From a virus (lineage: Duplodnaviria; Heunggongvirae; Uroviricota; Caudoviricetes): a stretch of DNA of 13,965 bases. The stretch's first letter is position 1, and each line of letters opens with the position of its first letter. The notes under the pieces are model-generated. The model saw nothing but the letters and a program-made list of their open reading frames with translations, did not search any database and was not told the DNA's origin. The position numbers and the translations under genes are program-made. The DNA is taken from IMG/VR virus record IMGVR_UViG_2681813421_000009. One strand, written 5' to 3'. Of the stretch, positions 6,392 to 13,792 are shown piece by piece.

Positions 6392-8743
6392 ATGCGAAAC
6401 ATTGATCTTATCCGTCAGGTTATCAGTGCGTCTGAAAACAACTGGCCTCATGTGCTGGACTGCCTGAACATAAATGTCCCTGACTCTCCGCGCCGTCATG
6501 CTCCCTGCCCTGCATGTGGGGGCAAAGATCGATTCCGGTTCGATGACAACGGGCGCGGTAGCTTCATCTGTAATCAGTGCGGCGCTGGTGATGGGCTGGA
6601 TTTAATTAAACGCGTAAATAACTGCGACACAACAGAGGCGGCGCTTCTTGCCGCTGATGTTCTGGGTATTGATTACCGGACAACGGAAACACCAGAAGCC
6701 ACCAGCCAGAAACGGGAACAACTGGAAACCGAGCGCCAGCGACGCGAACAGGAGCGCCTGAAAAGGGCAGAGAAGGACGAACAACAAAGACGGGATACGT
6801 TTTCCCGTCAGTTTGATGACATGCGCAGAAAGGCTGTAAACGGCAAATCTGATTATCTGGTTGCGAAAGGGGTAGGTGATTTTACATTCCCTGTGTTGCC
6901 CGATGGATCTCTGTTGCTGGCGCTGGTGGATAAATCCGGCGCAGTCACAGCAGCACAGACTATTACCTCACATGGTGAAAAAAGACTCCTGACAGGTTCA
7001 GCAAAGCGAGGGGCATATCACGCCATAAACGCACAGAAACGACCTCACAGCATCATAATTGCTGAGGGGGTGGCTACCGCCCTGTCGTGCCATTTAATTC
7101 GCCCTGACGCAATGACAGTGGCAGCAATCGACGCTGGCAACCTGTTGCCAGTAGCGGAAGTCATGCGCAGAACATATCCACAGGCACAAATCATCATTGC
7201 CGCAGATAACGATCACCAGCAAGGAAACTCCGAAAGTGGAGGGATCAACACGGGGAAAGATGCCGCAGAGAGGGCCGCTATTTCCGTAGCTGGCTGGGTG
7301 TCTCTGCCACCGACTGACTATAAAGCCGACTGGAACGACTATCACCAACAACACGGGCTGGCGGCAGCCACAGCAGCATTTAAAGATTCGATGTACCAGC
7401 CACGGGGGAAAGGGGCGCAGGTGAAAAATCACAAACAGTCAGTCGGGGCGCTGAATGAGATCAGTTCTGGCGAGGTGTTAAGCGATGATGAAATTGCTGT
7501 CCTCGAAGAAATCAACCGGACGTTTACGCATGTCACCATCGGCGGGAAACACAAGGTGGTGTCGCTAAAGCCTTCTCAAACCGGCGGTGTATCGCACGTT
7601 TTCGAGGATTTATCACAATTTCAGCATTATTTTCATCATAAACCGAGAGTCGCCAGAAAGCTGGCGGGATCGGCGTGGCTGTCATGGAGTGGGAAGAACT
7701 ACAAGCCAGGAGGCGTAGGATTTTATCCAGTACCAGACAAATGCCCTGACGATGTTTTTAATCTGTATGAGGGGCTGGCACTGGAACCAATTGAAGGAGA
7801 TTGCACGGTATACCTTAATCACCTGTTGCAGGTTGTCTGTGCCGGTAATGAAGAGGCATACCAATATCTTATCCAGTGGATGGCGCACATTATCCAAAAG
7901 CCTGATGAAAAACCGTCCGTGGCAATCGTGATGAAATCTGTCCCGGGCACAGGGAAAGGCACAACGGTTAAACCGCTGCTGCAAATACTGGGGCAGTACG
8001 CCGCCCACATTAACGGGGCGGGACATATTTCAGGGCGCTTCAATTCAATACTTGCTAACAAGCTACTGGTATTTGCTGACGAAGTGACGATCCACAAGCC
8101 GTCTGAAGCTGACAGACTTAAAGCGATTATTAGCGAACCGACGTTTAACCTTGAGCGCAAGGGAATTGATGCTGAACCAATGCCGAATTTTGCCCGGTTG
8201 ATATTTGCCAGTAACAGCACACAGGTATTACAGGCAGGGATAAGAGAGCGCCGCTATCTCGTGCTTGAGCCATCTCCTGAAAAAGCACAGAGCCGGGAGT
8301 ATTTTGATCGGCTGTACAGTTGGCTTAATGATGGCGGTGCCGCAAAGTTGCTTTGGCATCTTAAAGGGGTGGATCTCTCAGGTTTTGACCCTCAACGAGC
8401 GCCACAGACCGATGCCTTACGTGAAGAAATCTTGCTGGGGCTGTCTGGCGTTGAATTGTTTCTTTATGGCGAGCTAATCAATGAACCTCCGTTTAATGGC
8501 GAAGTCCGTTTGTTTGCAAAGGATATGGTTAGTCGATTTGTAGCGTGGTCGCTTGAGCGTGGGGAAAAGCTTAAAGAACCAGCTGCCAGATCACTACTGG
8601 GTAAATCACTTGCACAAATGGGGCTGGTGAAGCATGGAAGACCAGACCGAGGGAATGGCGTGTTCTACGAACTACCAGAGGTCGGAGTTCTACAGGCTGC
8701 GTTTGCCCGTCTGATCGGTATGGGGGGTTATGATGTTTTTTAA
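6392..8743 (+). CDS. P4-alpha-type primase/helicase (Zn-ribbon, Toprim primase, D5-like helicase)
   Basis: 783-aa ORF. N-terminal zinc ribbon (CPACGGKDRFRF...FICNQCG), Toprim motifs (IIIAEGVATALS and IIIAADNDHQ), C-terminal Walker A (VPGTGKGTT, about 7945-7970) and Walker B (LLVFADEV). RBS GGGGG upstream of the ATG. Confidence 0.9.
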   Translation: MRNIDLIRQVISASENNWPHVLDCLNINVPDSPRRHAPCPACGGKDRFRFDDNGRGSFICNQCGAGDGLDLIKRVNNCDTTEAALLAADVLGIDYRTTETPEATSQKREQLETERQRREQERLKRAEKDEQQRRDTFSRQFDDMRRKAVNGKSDYLVAKGVGDFTFPVLPDGSLLLALVDKSGAVTAAQTITSHGEKRLLTGSAKRGAYHAINAQKRPHSIIIAEGVATALSCHLIRPDAMTVAAIDAGNLLPVAEVMRRTYPQAQIIIAADNDHQQGNSESGGINTGKDAAERAAISVAGWVSLPPTDYKADWNDYHQQHGLAAATAAFKDSMYQPRGKGAQVKNHKQSVGALNEISSGEVLSDDEIAVLEEINRTFTHVTIGGKHKVVSLKPSQTGGVSHVFEDLSQFQHYFHHKPRVARKLAGSAWLSWSGKNYKPGGVGFYPVPDKCPDDVFNLYEGLALEPIEGDCTVYLNHLLQVVCAGNEEAYQYLIQWMAHIIQKPDEKPSVAIVMKSVPGTGKGTTVKPLLQILGQYAAHINGAGHISGRFNSILANKLLVFADEVTIHKPSEADRLKAIISEPTFNLERKGIDAEPMPNFARLIFASNSTQVLQAGIRERRYLVLEPSPEKAQSREYFDRLYSWLNDGGAAKLLWHLKGVDLSGFDPQRAPQTDALREEILLGLSGVELFLYGELINEPPFNGEVRLFAKDMVSRFVAWSLERGEKLKEPAARSLLGKSLAQMGLVKHGRPDRGNGVFYELPEVGVLQAAFARLIGMGGYDVF

Positions 8744-8772
8744 TATAGTCTTTTTACAAGAAGATCGTTTTT

Positions 8773-8876
8773 ACCTGTACCACCTATACCACTTTGCTAA
8801 TTCAGCATTAAAAACAATGCGTTATAGTGGTACAGGTCAATATCTTACCTATACCAGACCTGTACCACCTATACCA
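8773..8876. repeat. Iteron-like repeat cluster downstream of the primase
   Basis: Perfect 19-bp direct repeat ACCTGTACCACCTATACCA at 8773-8791 and 8858-8876; inverted copy GTGGTACAGGTC at 8827-8838 facing GACCTGTACCAC at 8857-8868; CCTATACCA occurs three times. Confidence 0.6.
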
Positions 8877-8919
8877 TTAACAAACGCATTTCTTCTGGCT
8901 GGCTGAGAGGGAACAACCA

Positions 8920-9150
8920 ATGATGAGCACACCATTTTACAAAGTGCGCCAGTTAGCTTCTTCCTCTGGCTGGCAGCTACGGTTTGAGGGGCGTTCAGAC
9001 TGGCTACCCATTGCGGCATGGGCGAATGTTGAAATGTGTATTGACGGCGATACCGTTGAAATCATTATTCCCTGCGTGGCAAGTCGGGACGGCTGTATAG
9101 AGCCAACAGATATGGCAGCAGAAATCAGAGAGGTAAAACATGAACAATAA
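8920..9150 (+). CDS. small hypothetical protein (76 aa)
   Basis: ORF with RBS GAGAGGGAA upstream of ATG 8920; sits between the two repeat clusters. Confidence 0.5.
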   Translation: MMSTPFYKVRQLASSSGWQLRFEGRSDWLPIAAWANVEMCIDGDTVEIIIPCVASRDGCIEPTDMAAEIREVKHEQ

Positions 9151-9877
9151 CTATTGCATACTGCAGGGAATGACCAGAACGGAGCGCGAAGAATTAAAAA
9201 GTTTCGCTACACAGTGCGGGAATGCTGGCGACATCCAAAGTCTGGAACGCACTTTAATTATGATTGCGCACTGGATGCGCCAGGGGCAAAGAGTTTCATT
9301 TACTGAATATGCCAGCCAGTGGACAGAGGCACAGCGCGAACGGAGCGACGGTAATCACTCAACACCCGAAATGGCGAAGCAATGGCCTTTCAGTGGTAAA
9401 CGCTGTATCAGTCCCGGTGGTTCAGATTATTACCCTGCTGGTGTGGGAGATGAGCCATGTTGTGACGAGACTGAAATCCGCCACGCAGTGACAGTAATTA
9501 CCGCTGAATACCCACAATTTAACCTTGACGGACTGGCGCTCCACAACCGGAATGCGGACTGGGAAAACCCGCTTGATAACCCGTCATTTATCGTATCGGC
9601 GAAAAGCTGCCTGAGATGGATCAGAGACAACGGGATGAGTAATGCCCAGATTGAGAGCTTCCCGCAGGATAACCCCACATCTGACACGTTGAAGCATGAA
9701 GTGGAGCGATATAACCAGATAAACCACCAGCACAGTGATCACCCGCACTATATCCCCAACGGAGCATTTATTGCGGCGATGGTGGCAAGCGGCTACAAGG
9801 TTAAGCCAGCGGGAAGAATGAACGCATTTTTCAATATTTCAAAAAAGGGATTATGTGCTGCTATGGGTAAAAATTAA
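9140..9877 (+). CDS. hypothetical protein (245 aa)
   Basis: ORF overlapping the upstream gene by 11 nt; RBS GAGAGG upstream. No family recognised. Confidence 0.55.
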   Translation: MNNNYCILQGMTRTEREELKSFATQCGNAGDIQSLERTLIMIAHWMRQGQRVSFTEYASQWTEAQRERSDGNHSTPEMAKQWPFSGKRCISPGGSDYYPAGVGDEPCCDETEIRHAVTVITAEYPQFNLDGLALHNRNADWENPLDNPSFIVSAKSCLRWIRDNGMSNAQIESFPQDNPTSDTLKHEVERYNQINHQHSDHPHYIPNGAFIAAMVASGYKVKPAGRMNAFFNISKKGLCAAMGKN

Positions 9878-9882
9878 ATAAA

Positions 9883-9986
9883 TGGTACAGGTCTGTACAG
9901 GTGGGGAGAGGTCATTTTTACCCACCTGTACCACCTGCAGGCCGCGCCACACAAGGGTTTGTGACATGGTGGTACAGGTGGTACAG
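9883..9986. repeat. Second iteron-like cluster including an 11-bp perfect inverted repeat
   Basis: Same core motif (GGTACAGG / CCTGTACC) in at least five copies: TGGTACAGGTC 9883-9893, GTACAGGTGGG 9895-9905, CCCACCTGTACCACCTG 9921-9937, GGTGGTACAGGTGGTACAG 9968-9986. GTACAGGTGGG (9895-9905) and CCCACCTGTAC (9921-9931) form a perfect inverted repeat with a 15-nt spacer. Confidence 0.6.
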
Positions 9987-10139
9987 CAAAAACAGCGATT
10001 TTCTTTATAAGGTATGTTTTGCTCATCTGGCAGACGGAGGTATTCGCTGCGGTTTGGCACATAGCCCAGAACAGCAAAGAGTTTTACGAGACTTTTGTAA
10101 AATCCAGTGTACAAGGGCGTGACGTTTTTGAAGGTGAGC

Positions 10140-10158
10140 ACTACGAAATTTTCGTAGT
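10140..10158. promoter_or_regulatory. 19-bp perfect palindrome (candidate operator)
   Basis: ACTACGAAA-T-TTTCGTAGT centred at 10149 in the non-coding stretch between the repeat cluster and the cargo operon. No flanking T-run on either strand, so not a terminator. Confidence 0.3.
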
Positions 10159-10351
10159 TCAAAAAATAGCCTCTGAGATGTTGTTATGCCTGTTCAGCAA
10201 ACCATCCGCATAGCTGATCGCGAATCAAATTACCAATGGAGCCAGAAGCAAGGGCAGAACTGGAAAGCGCCTGCCGTGAAGAGTAATGCGACTCCATAAA
10301 TATAGTTTTTAGAGTCCATAAAAAAACTGTCAAAACCTGACATACAGAACG

Positions 10352-10384
10352 ATGCCACCAGCTACTGAACGGTGGCATTTTTTT
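10352..10384 (+). terminator. Rho-independent terminator
   Basis: Stem ATGCCACC (10352-10359) / GGTGGCAT (10371-10378) with an 11-nt loop, followed by a run of seven T. The opposite strand lacks a 3' T-run. Confidence 0.5.
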
Positions 10385-10480
10385 GTGCTATTTGTTTCAT
10401 ATTTTGCAATCACAATGATGAATGTTGCGTTTTATGAAACTATAATGACTGTTGTTTTATACAGTTCTAAGGGGGGCGTT

Positions 10481-10654
10481 ATGGCTATTTCAGTAAAGCC
10501 AGTATTGATAAGTGAGAAGCAAATGGAAGCGATAAAGAAAATTCAGGAGGAGCAGCGTAAAAAATCAGAGGTAGGAGTTGCGCCAACGATCCACGAAATT
10601 GCTCGGGGATTAATGGATAAGGCGCTGGCTTACACTTTAACTGGACGTGGGTAA
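10481..10654 (+). CDS. small DNA-binding-like protein (57 aa, possible ribbon-helix-helix fold)
   Basis: ATG at 10481 with RBS AAGGGGGG 5 nt upstream. The six-frame ORF from 10352 would overlap the terminator hairpin and has no RBS. The RHH call is a guess from size and charge pattern only. Confidence 0.5.
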   Translation: MAISVKPVLISEKQMEAIKKIQEEQRKKSEVGVAPTIHEIARGLMDKALAYTLTGRG

Positions 10655-10658
10655 ATTT

Positions 10659-12002
10659 ATGGCTACGTGGCAACAGGGTATTAATTCTGGTGGTTTTCTG
10701 GCTGGCATCGGTGCGCAAAATGAGAATGCGCCAAAGGCAAGCGACATTAACGCAACGCTTGGTCTGATCCGCGAAAACAATGAACTGGCTCGCTCAGGTG
10801 CAAATAACGTTGCTCTGACAGGTCTTCGTGGTCTGGCTGGAGTTGCTGACATTTATAAGCAGCAGCAACAGCAGGAACGTAAAGCGGCATTCCAGAAAGG
10901 TTATGCAGATGCTTATGCGTCCGGTGACAGGGAGCAGATGCGTAATCTTATTACAGCATTCCCAGAAGAGTTTGAGGAAGTCCGTAAAGGGATGAGTTAT
11001 GTCGATGATGCTCAAAGGGATGATTATGGCAATCTGGCGCTCAAAGCACAGGTAGCCTCATCGCTTGGTCAGGGCGCATTTGGCAGGTTCATGATGGATA
11101 ATGAGCAGGAGATGCGTCGTTTAGGTATCCCTCCAGAAACTATTGCTGAAATGCAGGTTAATGACCCGCAGGGCTTCCAGCATTTCGCAGGTAATCTGGC
11201 GCTGTTTTCTCTCGGTCATGAGAAGTATTTCGATATCAAAGATCAAATGGAAGGTCGTCGACTTGAGCAAGGGCGACTGGATGAAAGTATGCGTCAGGCT
11301 GACATGGAGAACGCGAGAGGATGGGCAAATATCCAGAACGCTCAACTAGACAGGGCTCAGCGAGCACAAATTCACTCAGATGAGATGGGATTGAAGCTAA
11401 TGGAGCTGGGGCAAAAAGGTAAGCCGTCAGCAGACTTAATTAAGGGATTAAATTCTGACATTACCAATTTTGGCAAAAATTATAACTCTGTCAGAGCGGC
11501 GGCAAACTCTCTGCAAGCCCTTAGCAAGGTAAATACTGGCGCTGCCCAACTTGGGATTATCTTCAACTACATGAAATCTCTTGACCCGCAGTCAGTCGTT
11601 CGTGAAGGCGAACAGGTTCAGGTAATGCGGTCTGATGGCATATGGGGACAAATCAAAGGATACATAGACCAGCTTAATGCTGGAAACGGCCTGTCGCAGG
11701 AGGCAAAGGATAACATTGTTAACGCCGCAAAAATCAACGCCAATGCTATGGGGCAGCAGTTTAACCAGCAGGTTGACGAGTATCTCGATACATATGGAGA
11801 AACTATTCCTCAGGGGCTAAGAAAAAGCCTTGAAAGAAGGAAAGCGAAGCTATTTGACGATGTTTCCGGGCAGCCTACATCACAGGCTGGCACTGGACAG
11901 GCAAAAGCGGCAACCGGAGGAATATCAGAAGGCGCAACGGCAACCAACCCTAAAACTGGTCAGAAAATCATTTACAGGAACGGAAAATGGCAGCAAATGT
12001 AA
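10659..12002 (+). CDS. hypothetical Gln-rich, coiled-coil-like protein (about 447 aa)
   Basis: ATG at 10659, 4 nt after the upstream stop; a GTG at 10647 is the alternative start. Contains a QQQQQ run and many Q/E/R-rich predicted helical segments. No catalytic motif recognised. Confidence 0.6.
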   Translation: MATWQQGINSGGFLAGIGAQNENAPKASDINATLGLIRENNELARSGANNVALTGLRGLAGVADIYKQQQQQERKAAFQKGYADAYASGDREQMRNLITAFPEEFEEVRKGMSYVDDAQRDDYGNLALKAQVASSLGQGAFGRFMMDNEQEMRRLGIPPETIAEMQVNDPQGFQHFAGNLALFSLGHEKYFDIKDQMEGRRLEQGRLDESMRQADMENARGWANIQNAQLDRAQRAQIHSDEMGLKLMELGQKGKPSADLIKGLNSDITNFGKNYNSVRAAANSLQALSKVNTGAAQLGIIFNYMKSLDPQSVVREGEQVQVMRSDGIWGQIKGYIDQLNAGNGLSQEAKDNIVNAAKINANAMGQQFNQQVDEYLDTYGETIPQGLRKSLERRKAKLFDDVSGQPTSQAGTGQAKAATGGISEGATATNPKTGQKIIYRNGKWQQM

Positions 12003-13792
12003 TCTTACCGGAAGGTTTTGTGCTCGATGAACAACCTGATAACTCACAGTTTCCTGATAGTTCACAGCTTCCTGATGGTTTTGTGCTTGATGCCCAACCA
12101 GAACAGCAGCAATCACCTTTGGTTTCACCAGAGGAAAATTCCAGACAGGAAAATGTTGTTAATAATGCTAACGGTTTCGACCGTTTTATGTATGGCGTTC
12201 TCAGTGGATTGATGGATGTTGGTAAAGGTGTTGGCCTGTTTCAGGATATGACACCAGAAGAGCAAGCCGCAATTCAGTCTCTACAGCAGAAGTTAGCGGC
12301 AAAACCATCAACCGCACAAGATGTTGGTGAGTTCGTTGGACAAGCAGCGCCATTTGTTAGTGGTGGTGGGATTATTTCTCAGGTTCCCAAAGGGGCGGCA
12401 AGACTGGCTGCCGCCGCAGGGCTTGGTGCTGGAGAAGGGGCTATTGTAGCCAATGGAACAAATAGCGATGTTGCTTCCGGCGCTGCTATTGGCGCTGTGG
12501 CTGGCCCTGTAGCCGAACTTGCTGGCCCTGCAATTAATAAAATAGCTGGGAAATTAACCAAGAAGAATGTTTCTTCGATTCCAGATATTGAGGGGATTAC
12601 TCCTGCCGAAGAGAAAATTCGTAAGTTATCTGCACAAGGCAACCCAAATCTTGCCTCTTCGCTTGAAGGGCTAGATCTAAAACCTCAGAAAGAAATTGTT
12701 GAGGCTGCAAATAGGCTTCATGTTGATTCAGTTCTTCCTTCTCATTTATCAGGAAATGAGCAATACCAAGCTGTAGAGCAAGCCCTAAAGTCACGGACAG
12801 GATCAGCGTTAAAAGCTCAAGAAGATAAAGCAATAAGCGAATTAGCCTCTAGTGCTGGCAAGATAATCGATGATGTTGCTGGTGCGCCAGATGCGTTAGC
12901 TATGAGCGAAAAATATATTTATCAGATAAATAGTAGAATGGAAGCACTAAAAAACCGTAGTGATCAGTTATATAAACGTGTTGATTCCGCTCTATCACCA
13001 AGAACAAAAGTCGAAGCAAATAACACAAGCACTATGCTGGAAAAAATCGCTGATGATTTAGGAGGGTGGGATAATCTTGACCCAATAGAAAAGCGAGTTT
13101 TTACAGCAATAAACCCCGGCCCAGATAGCATCCTAACGTATGCAAATTTAAACAGGCAAAGGCGTTTAGTTGGTGATGCCCTAAATAAAAAGCAGGGGCC
13201 ATACAAAGATGCTGATAAAGAAGCGCTATCAAGACTATATGGAGCTTTAGCTGAAGACCAAAAATCTGTCTTATCCAATACTGGATACTTGCGAGATTTC
13301 GAAGTCGCACAACGCCTTGTAGCTATGAGAAAAAACTTAGAAAGGCAAATGGTAAATCTTCGCGGGAAAACACTTAATGGGGATATAGCGTATAAAGTAA
13401 CGAATTCTCTTCAATCTATGGCAAAAGGTGATGCGAGAGGGTTTCGTGAGATTATGCAAAATACTCCATCAAGAACATTGCGAAGGGAGCTAGTAGGAAC
13501 AGCATTAAGAGATATGCTTTCCTCTGGGAAGCGTGGGGCCGACTTTAATCCATCTGGCTTCGCAGATTGGTGGCAAAACTTGCAACACAGTGGACAGCTA
13601 AAGACTTTGGCTGAACATTTGCCAAAAGAAACAATGAGCGGACTATATGATGTATACAAAGTTGCCAGAGCAATAAAAAATGCTAAAGCGCATGAAATAT
13701 CTACTGGTAAGCTGAATGAGTTTGTAAACAGATTTAATCGGGTAACAGCTCCATACGAACTAGCAGCAAAGGTAGTGACTCCAACTTACTGA
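11987..13792 (+). CDS. hypothetical large protein, 3' end truncated by IS1 insertion
   Basis: ATG at 11987 with RBS AGGAA, overlapping the upstream gene by 16 nt. N-terminal tandem motif [10 protein letters not shown] / [10 protein letters not shown], then a Gly/Ala-rich segment, then an AT-rich-encoded K/E/N-rich C-terminal region. Native sequence ends at 13770; the last seven codons (VVTPTY-stop) are read from the IS1 inverted repeat. Confidence 0.6.

Follow-up and report, generated by a model that had tools for sequence, protein, structure and literature searches.

Phage satellites spread virulence and defence genes, and replication decides how competitive they are against their helper phage. 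The origins of SaPIs and other Gram-positive phage-inducible chromosomal islands (PICIs) reportedly lie 3' of rep, carry sets of iterons that flank an AT-rich region, and have a specificity matched to the Rep allele. They go with another initiator family than the one described here, and we know of no SaPI-type origin for which a distant second array with a GC-rich spacer has been described. In P4, the alpha protein is said to bridge two sites, ori and crr, by DNA looping. Plasmids P1 and F have second arrays of initiator sites (incA and incC) that lie outside the meltable core and can be lost; these arrays bracket the rep gene and act negatively. For Gram-negative PICIs, the published origin design is a set of iterons around an AT-rich region, 3' of the initiator gene, and plasmid replication driven by the pri-rep/ori region has been demonstrated for EcCICFT073 (Fillol-Salom et al. 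2018, PMC6092414). EcCIMP1 of E. coli MP1 is a PICI that has been mobilised experimentally by phage Kapi1 (PMC11773190).

We analysed one stretch of DNA of 13,965 bp, which we call the window. It is 100% identical to the chromosomal island of ETEC H10407 at thrW. The genes come in the order tyrosine integrase, small AlpA-like HTH protein, AntA, Ash, a 783-aa primase-helicase (Pri-Rep), two small ORFs (orf76 and orf245) and P22-type ejection-protein-like genes, and a PerC gene follows in the H10407 island beyond the end of the window. With int, alpA and pri-rep in one transcription direction, a small size and an accessory perC, this is the gene layout described for Gram-negative PICIs (PMC6092414). 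The island shares its family and its thrW site with EcCIMP1: AlpA is identical, the integrase, AntA, Ash and ejection-like genes are near-identical, EcCIMP1 and the H10407 island have identical PerC proteins, and outside a central cassette the two islands are collinear with DNA that is 93–95% identical. The difference lies in the cassette, where EcCIMP1 has a DUF927 allele of the initiator and a single array, and is without orf76, orf245 and the second array. The window is an EcCIMP1-like PICI of E. coli. The island is present in 130–140 of 5,426 complete E. coli genomes (130 with at least 80% coverage in one place), and the stretch at 8700-10100 was found in 140 of the 5,426, chromosomal in every case.

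Two clusters of one octamer, C1 and C2, lie downstream of the Pri-Rep gene (Table 1). We believe that C2 is probably the distal one of two iteron arrays that together make up the replication origin of this island, judging from its design, its relatives and the company it keeps. It is a known kind of origin in an unusual new layout and not a new system.

Table 1. Coordinates of the features discussed in the text, numbered from the first base of the window.
Feature	Position	Strand	Description
Pri-Rep initiator	6392..8743	+	783 aa; Zn-ribbon/Toprim primase, SF3 helicase (DUF5906) and predicted C-terminal winged helix
Swappable replicon cassette	7414..10077	+	Helicase/winged-helix part of Pri-Rep, C1, orf76, orf245 and C2
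Iteron array C1, putative proximal origin half	8774..8875		Octamers at 8774+, 8783+, 8829-, 8848+, 8859+, 8868+
C1 AT-rich spacer	8792..8826		71% AT; candidate DNA-unwinding element
CTGGCTGGC landmark	8895..8903	+	Follows the origin arrays in all related replicons
orf76	8920..9150	+	Small conserved gene linked to this Pri-Rep clade
orf245	9140..9877	+	Portable accessory gene; weakly winged-helix-like C-terminus
Iteron array C2, probable distal origin half	9884..9987		Octamers at 9884-, 9894-, 9925+, 9971-, 9980-
Perfect 11-bp inverted repeat	9895-9905 / 9921-9931		GTACAGGTGGG / CCCACCTGTAC; 15-nt spacer; from opposed iterons
Perfect 14-bp inverted repeat	9922-9935 / 9968-9981		CCACCTGTACCACC / GGTGGTACAGGTGG; flanks the C2 GC-rich spacer
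C2 GC-rich spacer	9933..9968		39% AT; conserved core CCGCGCCA at 9942-9949
C2 right flank	9988..10035		A-tract, then GCGATTTTC; conserved in close relatives, TTTTC core invariant in 8/8 aligned loci; cassette end
Terminator-like hairpin with T-run	10361..10385	+	Closes the early operon; in sequence common to sibling islands

The octamer, present in the window as CCTGTACC / CCTATACC, has six exact copies of CCTGTACC in the 13,965 bp where 0.15 are expected, and none of 200 shuffles reached six. All of them are confined to the two clusters, at 8774(+), 8829(-) and 8859(+) in C1 and at 9884(-), 9925(+) and 9971(-) in C2. A looser scan, with R permitted at position 4 and at most one mismatch, added the C2 octamers 9894(-) (CCTGTACA) and 9980(-) (GCTGTACC). 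C2, whose sequence at 9883-9987 is aaTGGTACAGGtcTGTACAGGtggggagaggtcatttttacccaCCTGTACCacctgcaggCCGCGCCAcacaagggtttgtgacatggtGGTACAGGtGGTACAGC, holds five octamers in total, three exact and two with one mismatch, in both orientations. This confirms the five copies in both orientations that the preliminary description had reported for 9883-9987, as well as its statement that two clusters bracket genes: C1 (8774-8875) and C2 (9884-9987) flank the ORFs at 8920-9150 and 9140-9877. It had also called for a scan of the element for further copies. We found no occurrence of the 7-mer CTGTACC in the window outside C1 and C2, and 29.4 kb of ETEC H10407, comprising the island in full plus its flanks, hold seven copies of the 8-mer, six in the clusters and one as an isolated stray outside the island.

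The inverted repeat that had been noted in C2, with perfect 11-bp arms around a 15-nt spacer, is real, and there is a second perfect one, of 14 bp, that was absent from that account. In addition, a 24-nt inverted repeat (88%) links the outer end of C1 with that of C2. These repeats might be read as an RNA hairpin where the early operon ends, serving as a terminator or stabiliser, or as the borders of an invertible DNA segment, and we give almost no credence to either. The RNA of 9878-9995 does fold better than shuffles (z = -3.4), and the 24-nt repeat of the outer ends also speaks for readings of this kind. However, no U-run follows the stems, and the octamer is also found in tandem and in C1. 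RNAalifold gave no covariation support on C2, where the pairs are the invariant iterons, and a search of Rfam gave no family match for the C2 RNA. Against inversion, there is no recombinase gene in or beside the segment, and the listed E. coli matches (20, and 14 full-length ones of a spread sample), taken out of the 130 genomes whose coverage in one place is 80% or more, are all single collinear pieces.

C1 begins 31 bp past the Pri-Rep stop codon and C2 begins 1,141 bp past the same stop. The arrays are 1,008 bp apart because two genes lie in the gap between them, and these fill it exactly: 44 nt separate C1 from the start codon of orf76, and 6 nt separate the stop codon of orf245 from C2. 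C1 is made of two tandem octamers with a 9-bp step, a 35-nt spacer, one inverted octamer and three more octamers. C2 is made of two octamers, one inverted octamer, a 36-nt spacer and two tandem octamers, again with a 9-bp step. The distances in C2, read in reverse, nearly match those in C1 (46/46, 31/30 and 41/39). C1 and C2 are related by a dyad, with C2 being the iteron geometry of C1 turned 180 degrees. Their spacers are of different kinds: C1 fits the published PICI origin design with 71% AT, whereas the C2 spacer has 39% AT. For 40-mers that start at 8720-8860, across C1, duplex stability is -44 to -51 kcal/mol, and the least stable one (8727-8766) has -42.0. The mean of the window is -54, and the C2 core has -56 to -62 kcal/mol for the same length of 40 bp. 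Because its spacer is GC-rich and very stable, C2 would not be a classic origin on its own.

The origin of EcCICFT073 also pairs an array that has a GC-rich spacer with an AT-rich one. In EcCICFT073 (L060, 6261-6490), C1 has two copies of CTGTCTACC, an AT-rich spacer, one inverted copy and three further copies. Its C2 follows 24 nt after C1 and has two copies and an inverted one, then 37 nt of GC-rich spacer that contains CCGCGCCA, then two copies again. The topology, the orientation, the 46-bp step and the CCGCGCCA core are the same as in the window, and the spacings within C2 are 11, 22, 46 and 9 there and 10, 31, 46 and 9 here. Both islands have int, alpA and pri-rep in one direction and a PerC gene, and both have the origin 3' of pri-rep, although of the arrays in the window C1 alone lies immediately behind the gene. 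They differ in three ways. The EcCICFT073 arrays are 24 nt apart while the window has 1,008 bp with two genes between them, the iteron is CTGTCTACC there and CTGTACC here, and the initiator is a 584-aa primase family protein rather than the 783-aa DUF5906 type of the window. From the match in topology, orientation, spacing and core, C2 appears to be the second array of a canonical composite PICI origin.

We compared the arrays with P4 in the same way. In the P4 record (NC_001609), the type-1 repeats of ori are at 9310-, 9320-, 9331-, 9353+, 9396- and 9406-, and crr consists of two 120-bp arrays directly 3' of alpha. In the P4 ori, three copies and an inverted one are followed by some 35 nt of AT-rich spacer and then by two more copies, which is the geometry of C1 reversed; its spacings are 10, 11, 22, 43 and 10, and those of C1 read in reverse are 9, 11, 19, 46 and 9. 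Each array of the window shares this ori geometry of tandem copies, an inverted copy, a 43–46 bp step and a tandem pair. Both systems have two separated octamer arrays of about 100 bp, with one of them directly 3' of the primase-helicase gene, and in both the initiator has the domain order Toprim primase, SF3 helicase, winged helix. The differences are that the P4 arrays are separated by about 4.7 kb against about 1.1 kb in the window, that the arrays of the window are mutually inverted, that the array next to the gene is AT-rich in the window while crr has that position in P4, and that the iteron is TGTTCACC in P4 and CCTGTACC / CCTATACC in the window. Pri-Rep has detectable homology with P4 alpha in the primase domain alone (33% identity over aa 7-337), and we found no match of Pri-Rep to the P4 origin-binding domain by sequence or among the top-60 structural matches. 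Because the homology is confined to the primase domain, we regard the window's system as P4-like in working and design and not as a strict member of the P4 alpha/ori/crr family. The comparison with P4 ori/crr in the preliminary description therefore holds for replication and for the geometry of the arrays, but the closest system is the composite PICI origin of EcCICFT073, and the initiator has only its primase domain in common with alpha. As to kind, the description was right: the octamers appear to behave as the initiator-binding iterons of a primase-helicase replicon.

The part of the island that carries these arrays looks like a swappable unit. When we aligned the window with its sibling islands L002 and EcCIMP1 (L058) by blastn, similarity ended at 7413 and resumed at 10078. 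Between these points the siblings have a DUF927-type helicase and then a single 130-bp array (TGGTTCA three times, an AT-rich spacer and GAACCA three times), and nothing more. In E. coli X14-3 (L003) the cassette of the window sits in a different island at another attachment site, and the shared block there is 6392-10035. Given the breakpoints at 7413/10078 and at 10035, C2 travels with the specificity part of the initiator and forms the right edge of the cassette.

The Pri-Rep gene is itself a mosaic. Its primase domain (aa 1-340) is 86–87% identical to that of DUF927-type initiators, while the helicase and winged-helix part (7414-8743) has been exchanged along with the origin, which places a recombination breakpoint within the gene (6392-7413 / 7414-8743).

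We looked at which iterons go with which initiators. DUF5906 initiators go with CTGTACC in the clade of the window and in L053 and L054, with CTAACCC in L055 and with CACTACC in L056. Variants of the DUF927 initiator go with GAACCA, AGACAAC, CGGGTTA or GGTCAC, and a shorter primase-helicase of 819 aa (L018) goes with GTAGGGA. The 11 loci whose two-array origin is intact cover five iteron types, and in every one of them the two arrays share one iteron. Where DUF927 initiators are 90–99% identical elsewhere, a short stretch at their very C-terminus goes with the iteron type: ...YQRKSPRIxGRQxNVY... pairs with GAACCA and ...YQGRVREDGRQIRVY... pairs with AGACAAC. About 12 residues in the last 25 or so amino acids co-vary with the iteron (L012, L015, L016, L019, L011 and L026), which makes them a compact candidate for the specificity determinant. 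In L022 (6856+150..+300) the first array has GAACCA iterons, and the second array is decayed with AGACAAC-like remnants. This points to a recombination event between the arrays, after which the mismatched half decayed, as would be expected if a mismatched array is no longer bound.

The preliminary description had also offered another reading, in which a regulator encoded between the clusters uses them as operators. We consider this reading, with orf76 or orf245 as the regulator, highly improbable, and likewise one in which the clusters otherwise control transcription of the flanking genes. Both arrays occur without orf76 and orf245 in EcCICFT073, in DUF927 loci, and in L053 and L054. Homologues of orf245 with a near-invariant C-terminal region adjoin iterons as different as AAGTGGGGA, GTGAGG and TCCCTAC, and the iterons co-vary instead with the C-terminus of the initiator. 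A scan for promoters and terminators found none at C1 or C2. The operator reading is disfavoured, with arrays that exist without the two genes and an orf245 C-terminus that stays the same beside different iterons. With the co-variation between iteron and initiator allele, the conservation of the iterons and the position at the edge of the cassette, C2 is most likely an initiator-binding array that acts at a distance, as in P4 ori/crr.

Homologues of the primase that are 72, 69, 64 and 54% identical occur in Raoultella, Salmonella, Buttiauxella and Xenorhabdus, and all of them keep the primase together with two genes, one of about 75 aa and one of about 250 aa. C2 comes directly after the larger gene in the first three, and in Xenorhabdus the array lies between the two genes. 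In total we found arrays homologous to C2 in L003, L049, L050, L006, L053, L054 and EcCICFT073. The loci L053 and L054 belong to P4-like satellites with homologues of epsilon and delta; their primase is 49% identical to that of the window, their iteron is CTGTACC, and their C1 and C2 are adjacent. Scans of metagenomes and viruses with the helicase half returned near-identical copies alone, and a search of the protein collection with the Pri-Rep C-terminal domain returned fragments alone.

Some relatives have lost the second array. In L051 (Enterobacter) C2 is gone save for a remnant, despite an intact primase, C1 and orf245, and this argues against a strict cis requirement for both sites. C2 is also absent from L007 (Pantoea), where the primase is truncated, so this case is uninformative. 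Some DUF927 elements, EcCIMP1 among them, lack the second array, and EcCIMP1 and L002 carry C1 only. Since it is absent from L051 and from these DUF927 elements, C2 is not essential in every lineage.

These losses bear on a reading of C2 as a non-functional relic, a half-origin severed by the insertion of orf76 and orf245. The loss or decay of C2 in L051 and L007 and the decayed second array with mismatched iterons in L022 are in line with it, although the primase of L007 is itself truncated. To look at selection, we compared the window with L049, L050 and L006 (the Raoultella, Salmonella and Buttiauxella loci). Identity at the iteron positions of C2 is 0.82–0.93, whereas it is 0.50–0.66 in the C2 spacers and 0.44–0.48, near saturation, at four-fold degenerate sites of the adjacent orf245. 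Across eight loci, column conservation in C2 is 0.82 for iterons and 0.67 between them (p = 5e-5), and across nine loci it is 0.91 for the iterons of C1 and 0.69 for its spacers (p = 8e-8). At the level of these alignments, this shows purifying selection on the C2 iterons after the 1-kb split. C2 has also been retained inside the cassette at two independent recombination boundaries. The selection data contradict the relic reading, which we judge to be very unlikely.

Another reading accepts that C2 binds the initiator and makes it a negative copy-control array, which titrates Pri-Rep or handcuffs C1 as P1 incA and F incC do. We regard this as doubtful, though worth keeping in mind. C2 has no meltable spacer and sits outside the AT-rich core, and it is dispensable in some relatives (L051, and EcCIMP1 and L002 with C1 only); such natural loss variants resemble the dispensability of the plasmid arrays. 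On the other hand, in most relatives the second array abuts C1 with dyad symmetry, which resembles one assembly site more than a separate control locus, and the arrays do not bracket the initiator gene in the way those of P1 and F do.

Returning to the two-part origin, we picture it as follows. Pri-Rep would read the octamer CTGTACC through its C-terminal domain, for which a winged-helix fold is predicted, and would assemble on both C1 and C2. C1, just 3' of pri-rep and with an AT-rich spacer, would be the likely melting site. C2 is unlikely to melt because its spacer is GC-rich and stable. In related replicons the adjacent arrays would form a single dyad-symmetric origin, and here orf76 and orf245 sit in the gap, so the two halves would have to communicate over about 1 kb. 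A protein-mediated DNA loop would be the simplest way to do this; we infer both the binding of Pri-Rep to the arrays and the looping from the features above. C2 could then act as an enhancer or a second helicase loading site, or it could control copy number by handcuffing.

As to how the split arose, we considered whether C2 is a local inverted copy of C1 and rejected this, because the same pair in the same orientation exists in EcCICFT073, in DUF927 loci and in P4-like satellites. For the same reason, the split is best explained by an insertion between arrays that were already there. The comparison suggests that the Gram-negative PICI origin may consist of two dyad-related iteron arrays, which goes beyond iterons around an AT-rich region. 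This would offer a natural setting in which to study how primase-helicase initiators act at a distance, which was left open for P4 ori/crr, and would have some value for how these initiators use two arrays and how P4 ori/crr may have arisen. There is also a rule for annotation, which is to seek a second array with the same iteron; it defines replicon cassettes and recombination boundaries in satellites. The practical gain is modest, namely better origin annotation for a widespread E. coli island.

We can extend this to a more speculative proposal, which we think is rather unlikely to be correct as a whole: origins of the PICI/P4 type would be two-part by nature, with a meltable array and a dyad-related array that has a GC-rich spacer with CCGCGCCA, the halves would be workable apart, and the clade of the window would be an intermediate toward P4 ori/crr. 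If this is true, P4 ori/crr arose when genes inserted at the centre of the dyad. With orf76 and orf245 inside it, the Pri-Rep loop could couple their expression, or protection from read-through, to initiation, and a further factor common to initiators of unrelated specificity would have its site in the CCGCGCCA core.

The spacer core (c)ag(G/A)CCGCGCCA is common to origins with unrelated initiators and iterons, including the tested origin of EcCICFT073. Its sites are at 9942-9949 in the window, 6442-6449 in L060 and 6167 in L053, where the C2 spacer core is cagGCCGCGCCAtt as in the window. The CCGCGCCA core is found in C2 of L003, L006, L053 and EcCICFT073 and, inverted, in the DUF927 loci L012, L014, L015, L016 and L019. 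The second arrays of L011, L021, L025, L026 and L052 have an AT-rich spacer instead of a GC-rich one. The conserved core might point to another factor.

Of the two genes in the gap, orf76 is found after C1 in L003, L006, L007 and L049-L052. It has no match in Pfam or PHROG, and neither orf76 nor orf245 matched a family. The predicted fold of orf245 has a pLDDT of 88, with a conserved C-terminal region that weakly resembles a winged helix. At least three unrelated types of replicon have this gene directly behind their origin (window 9140-9877; L004 5019-5792; L036 3501-4235).

The 9-mer CTGGCTGGC has five exact copies in the window (2573, 8895, 8966, 9311(-) and 10698), often after a T-rich run. 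With up to one mismatch there are 19 copies where 3.6 are expected, 16 of them on the + strand. Most related satellite loci (L003, L006, L012, L015, L049-L054 and L056 among them) have between three and eight exact copies; P4 and 49 kb of unrelated CFT073 DNA have no such copy. The 9-mer could serve as a signal for priming or regulation.

Downstream of the cassette, 10078-10400 is a non-coding stretch of about 320 bp that is 95–98% conserved in more than 400 E. coli genomes whatever their replicon allele. There is possibly a small ORF inside, a strong terminator-like hairpin stands at its end, and the stretch has no match in Rfam. The region at 10647-13792 has homologues of P22-type DNA-ejection/transfer proteins (PHROGs 917, 6704 and 770), as was noted for EcCIMP1, and the first ejection-type gene is a RefSeq pseudogene with an internal stop in H10407. 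Finally, the segment at 2000-2400, between the integrase region and the alpA-like gene, is very AT-rich (GC 0.25–0.31) and has the least stable DNA of the window; it is probably the regulatory region of the island.
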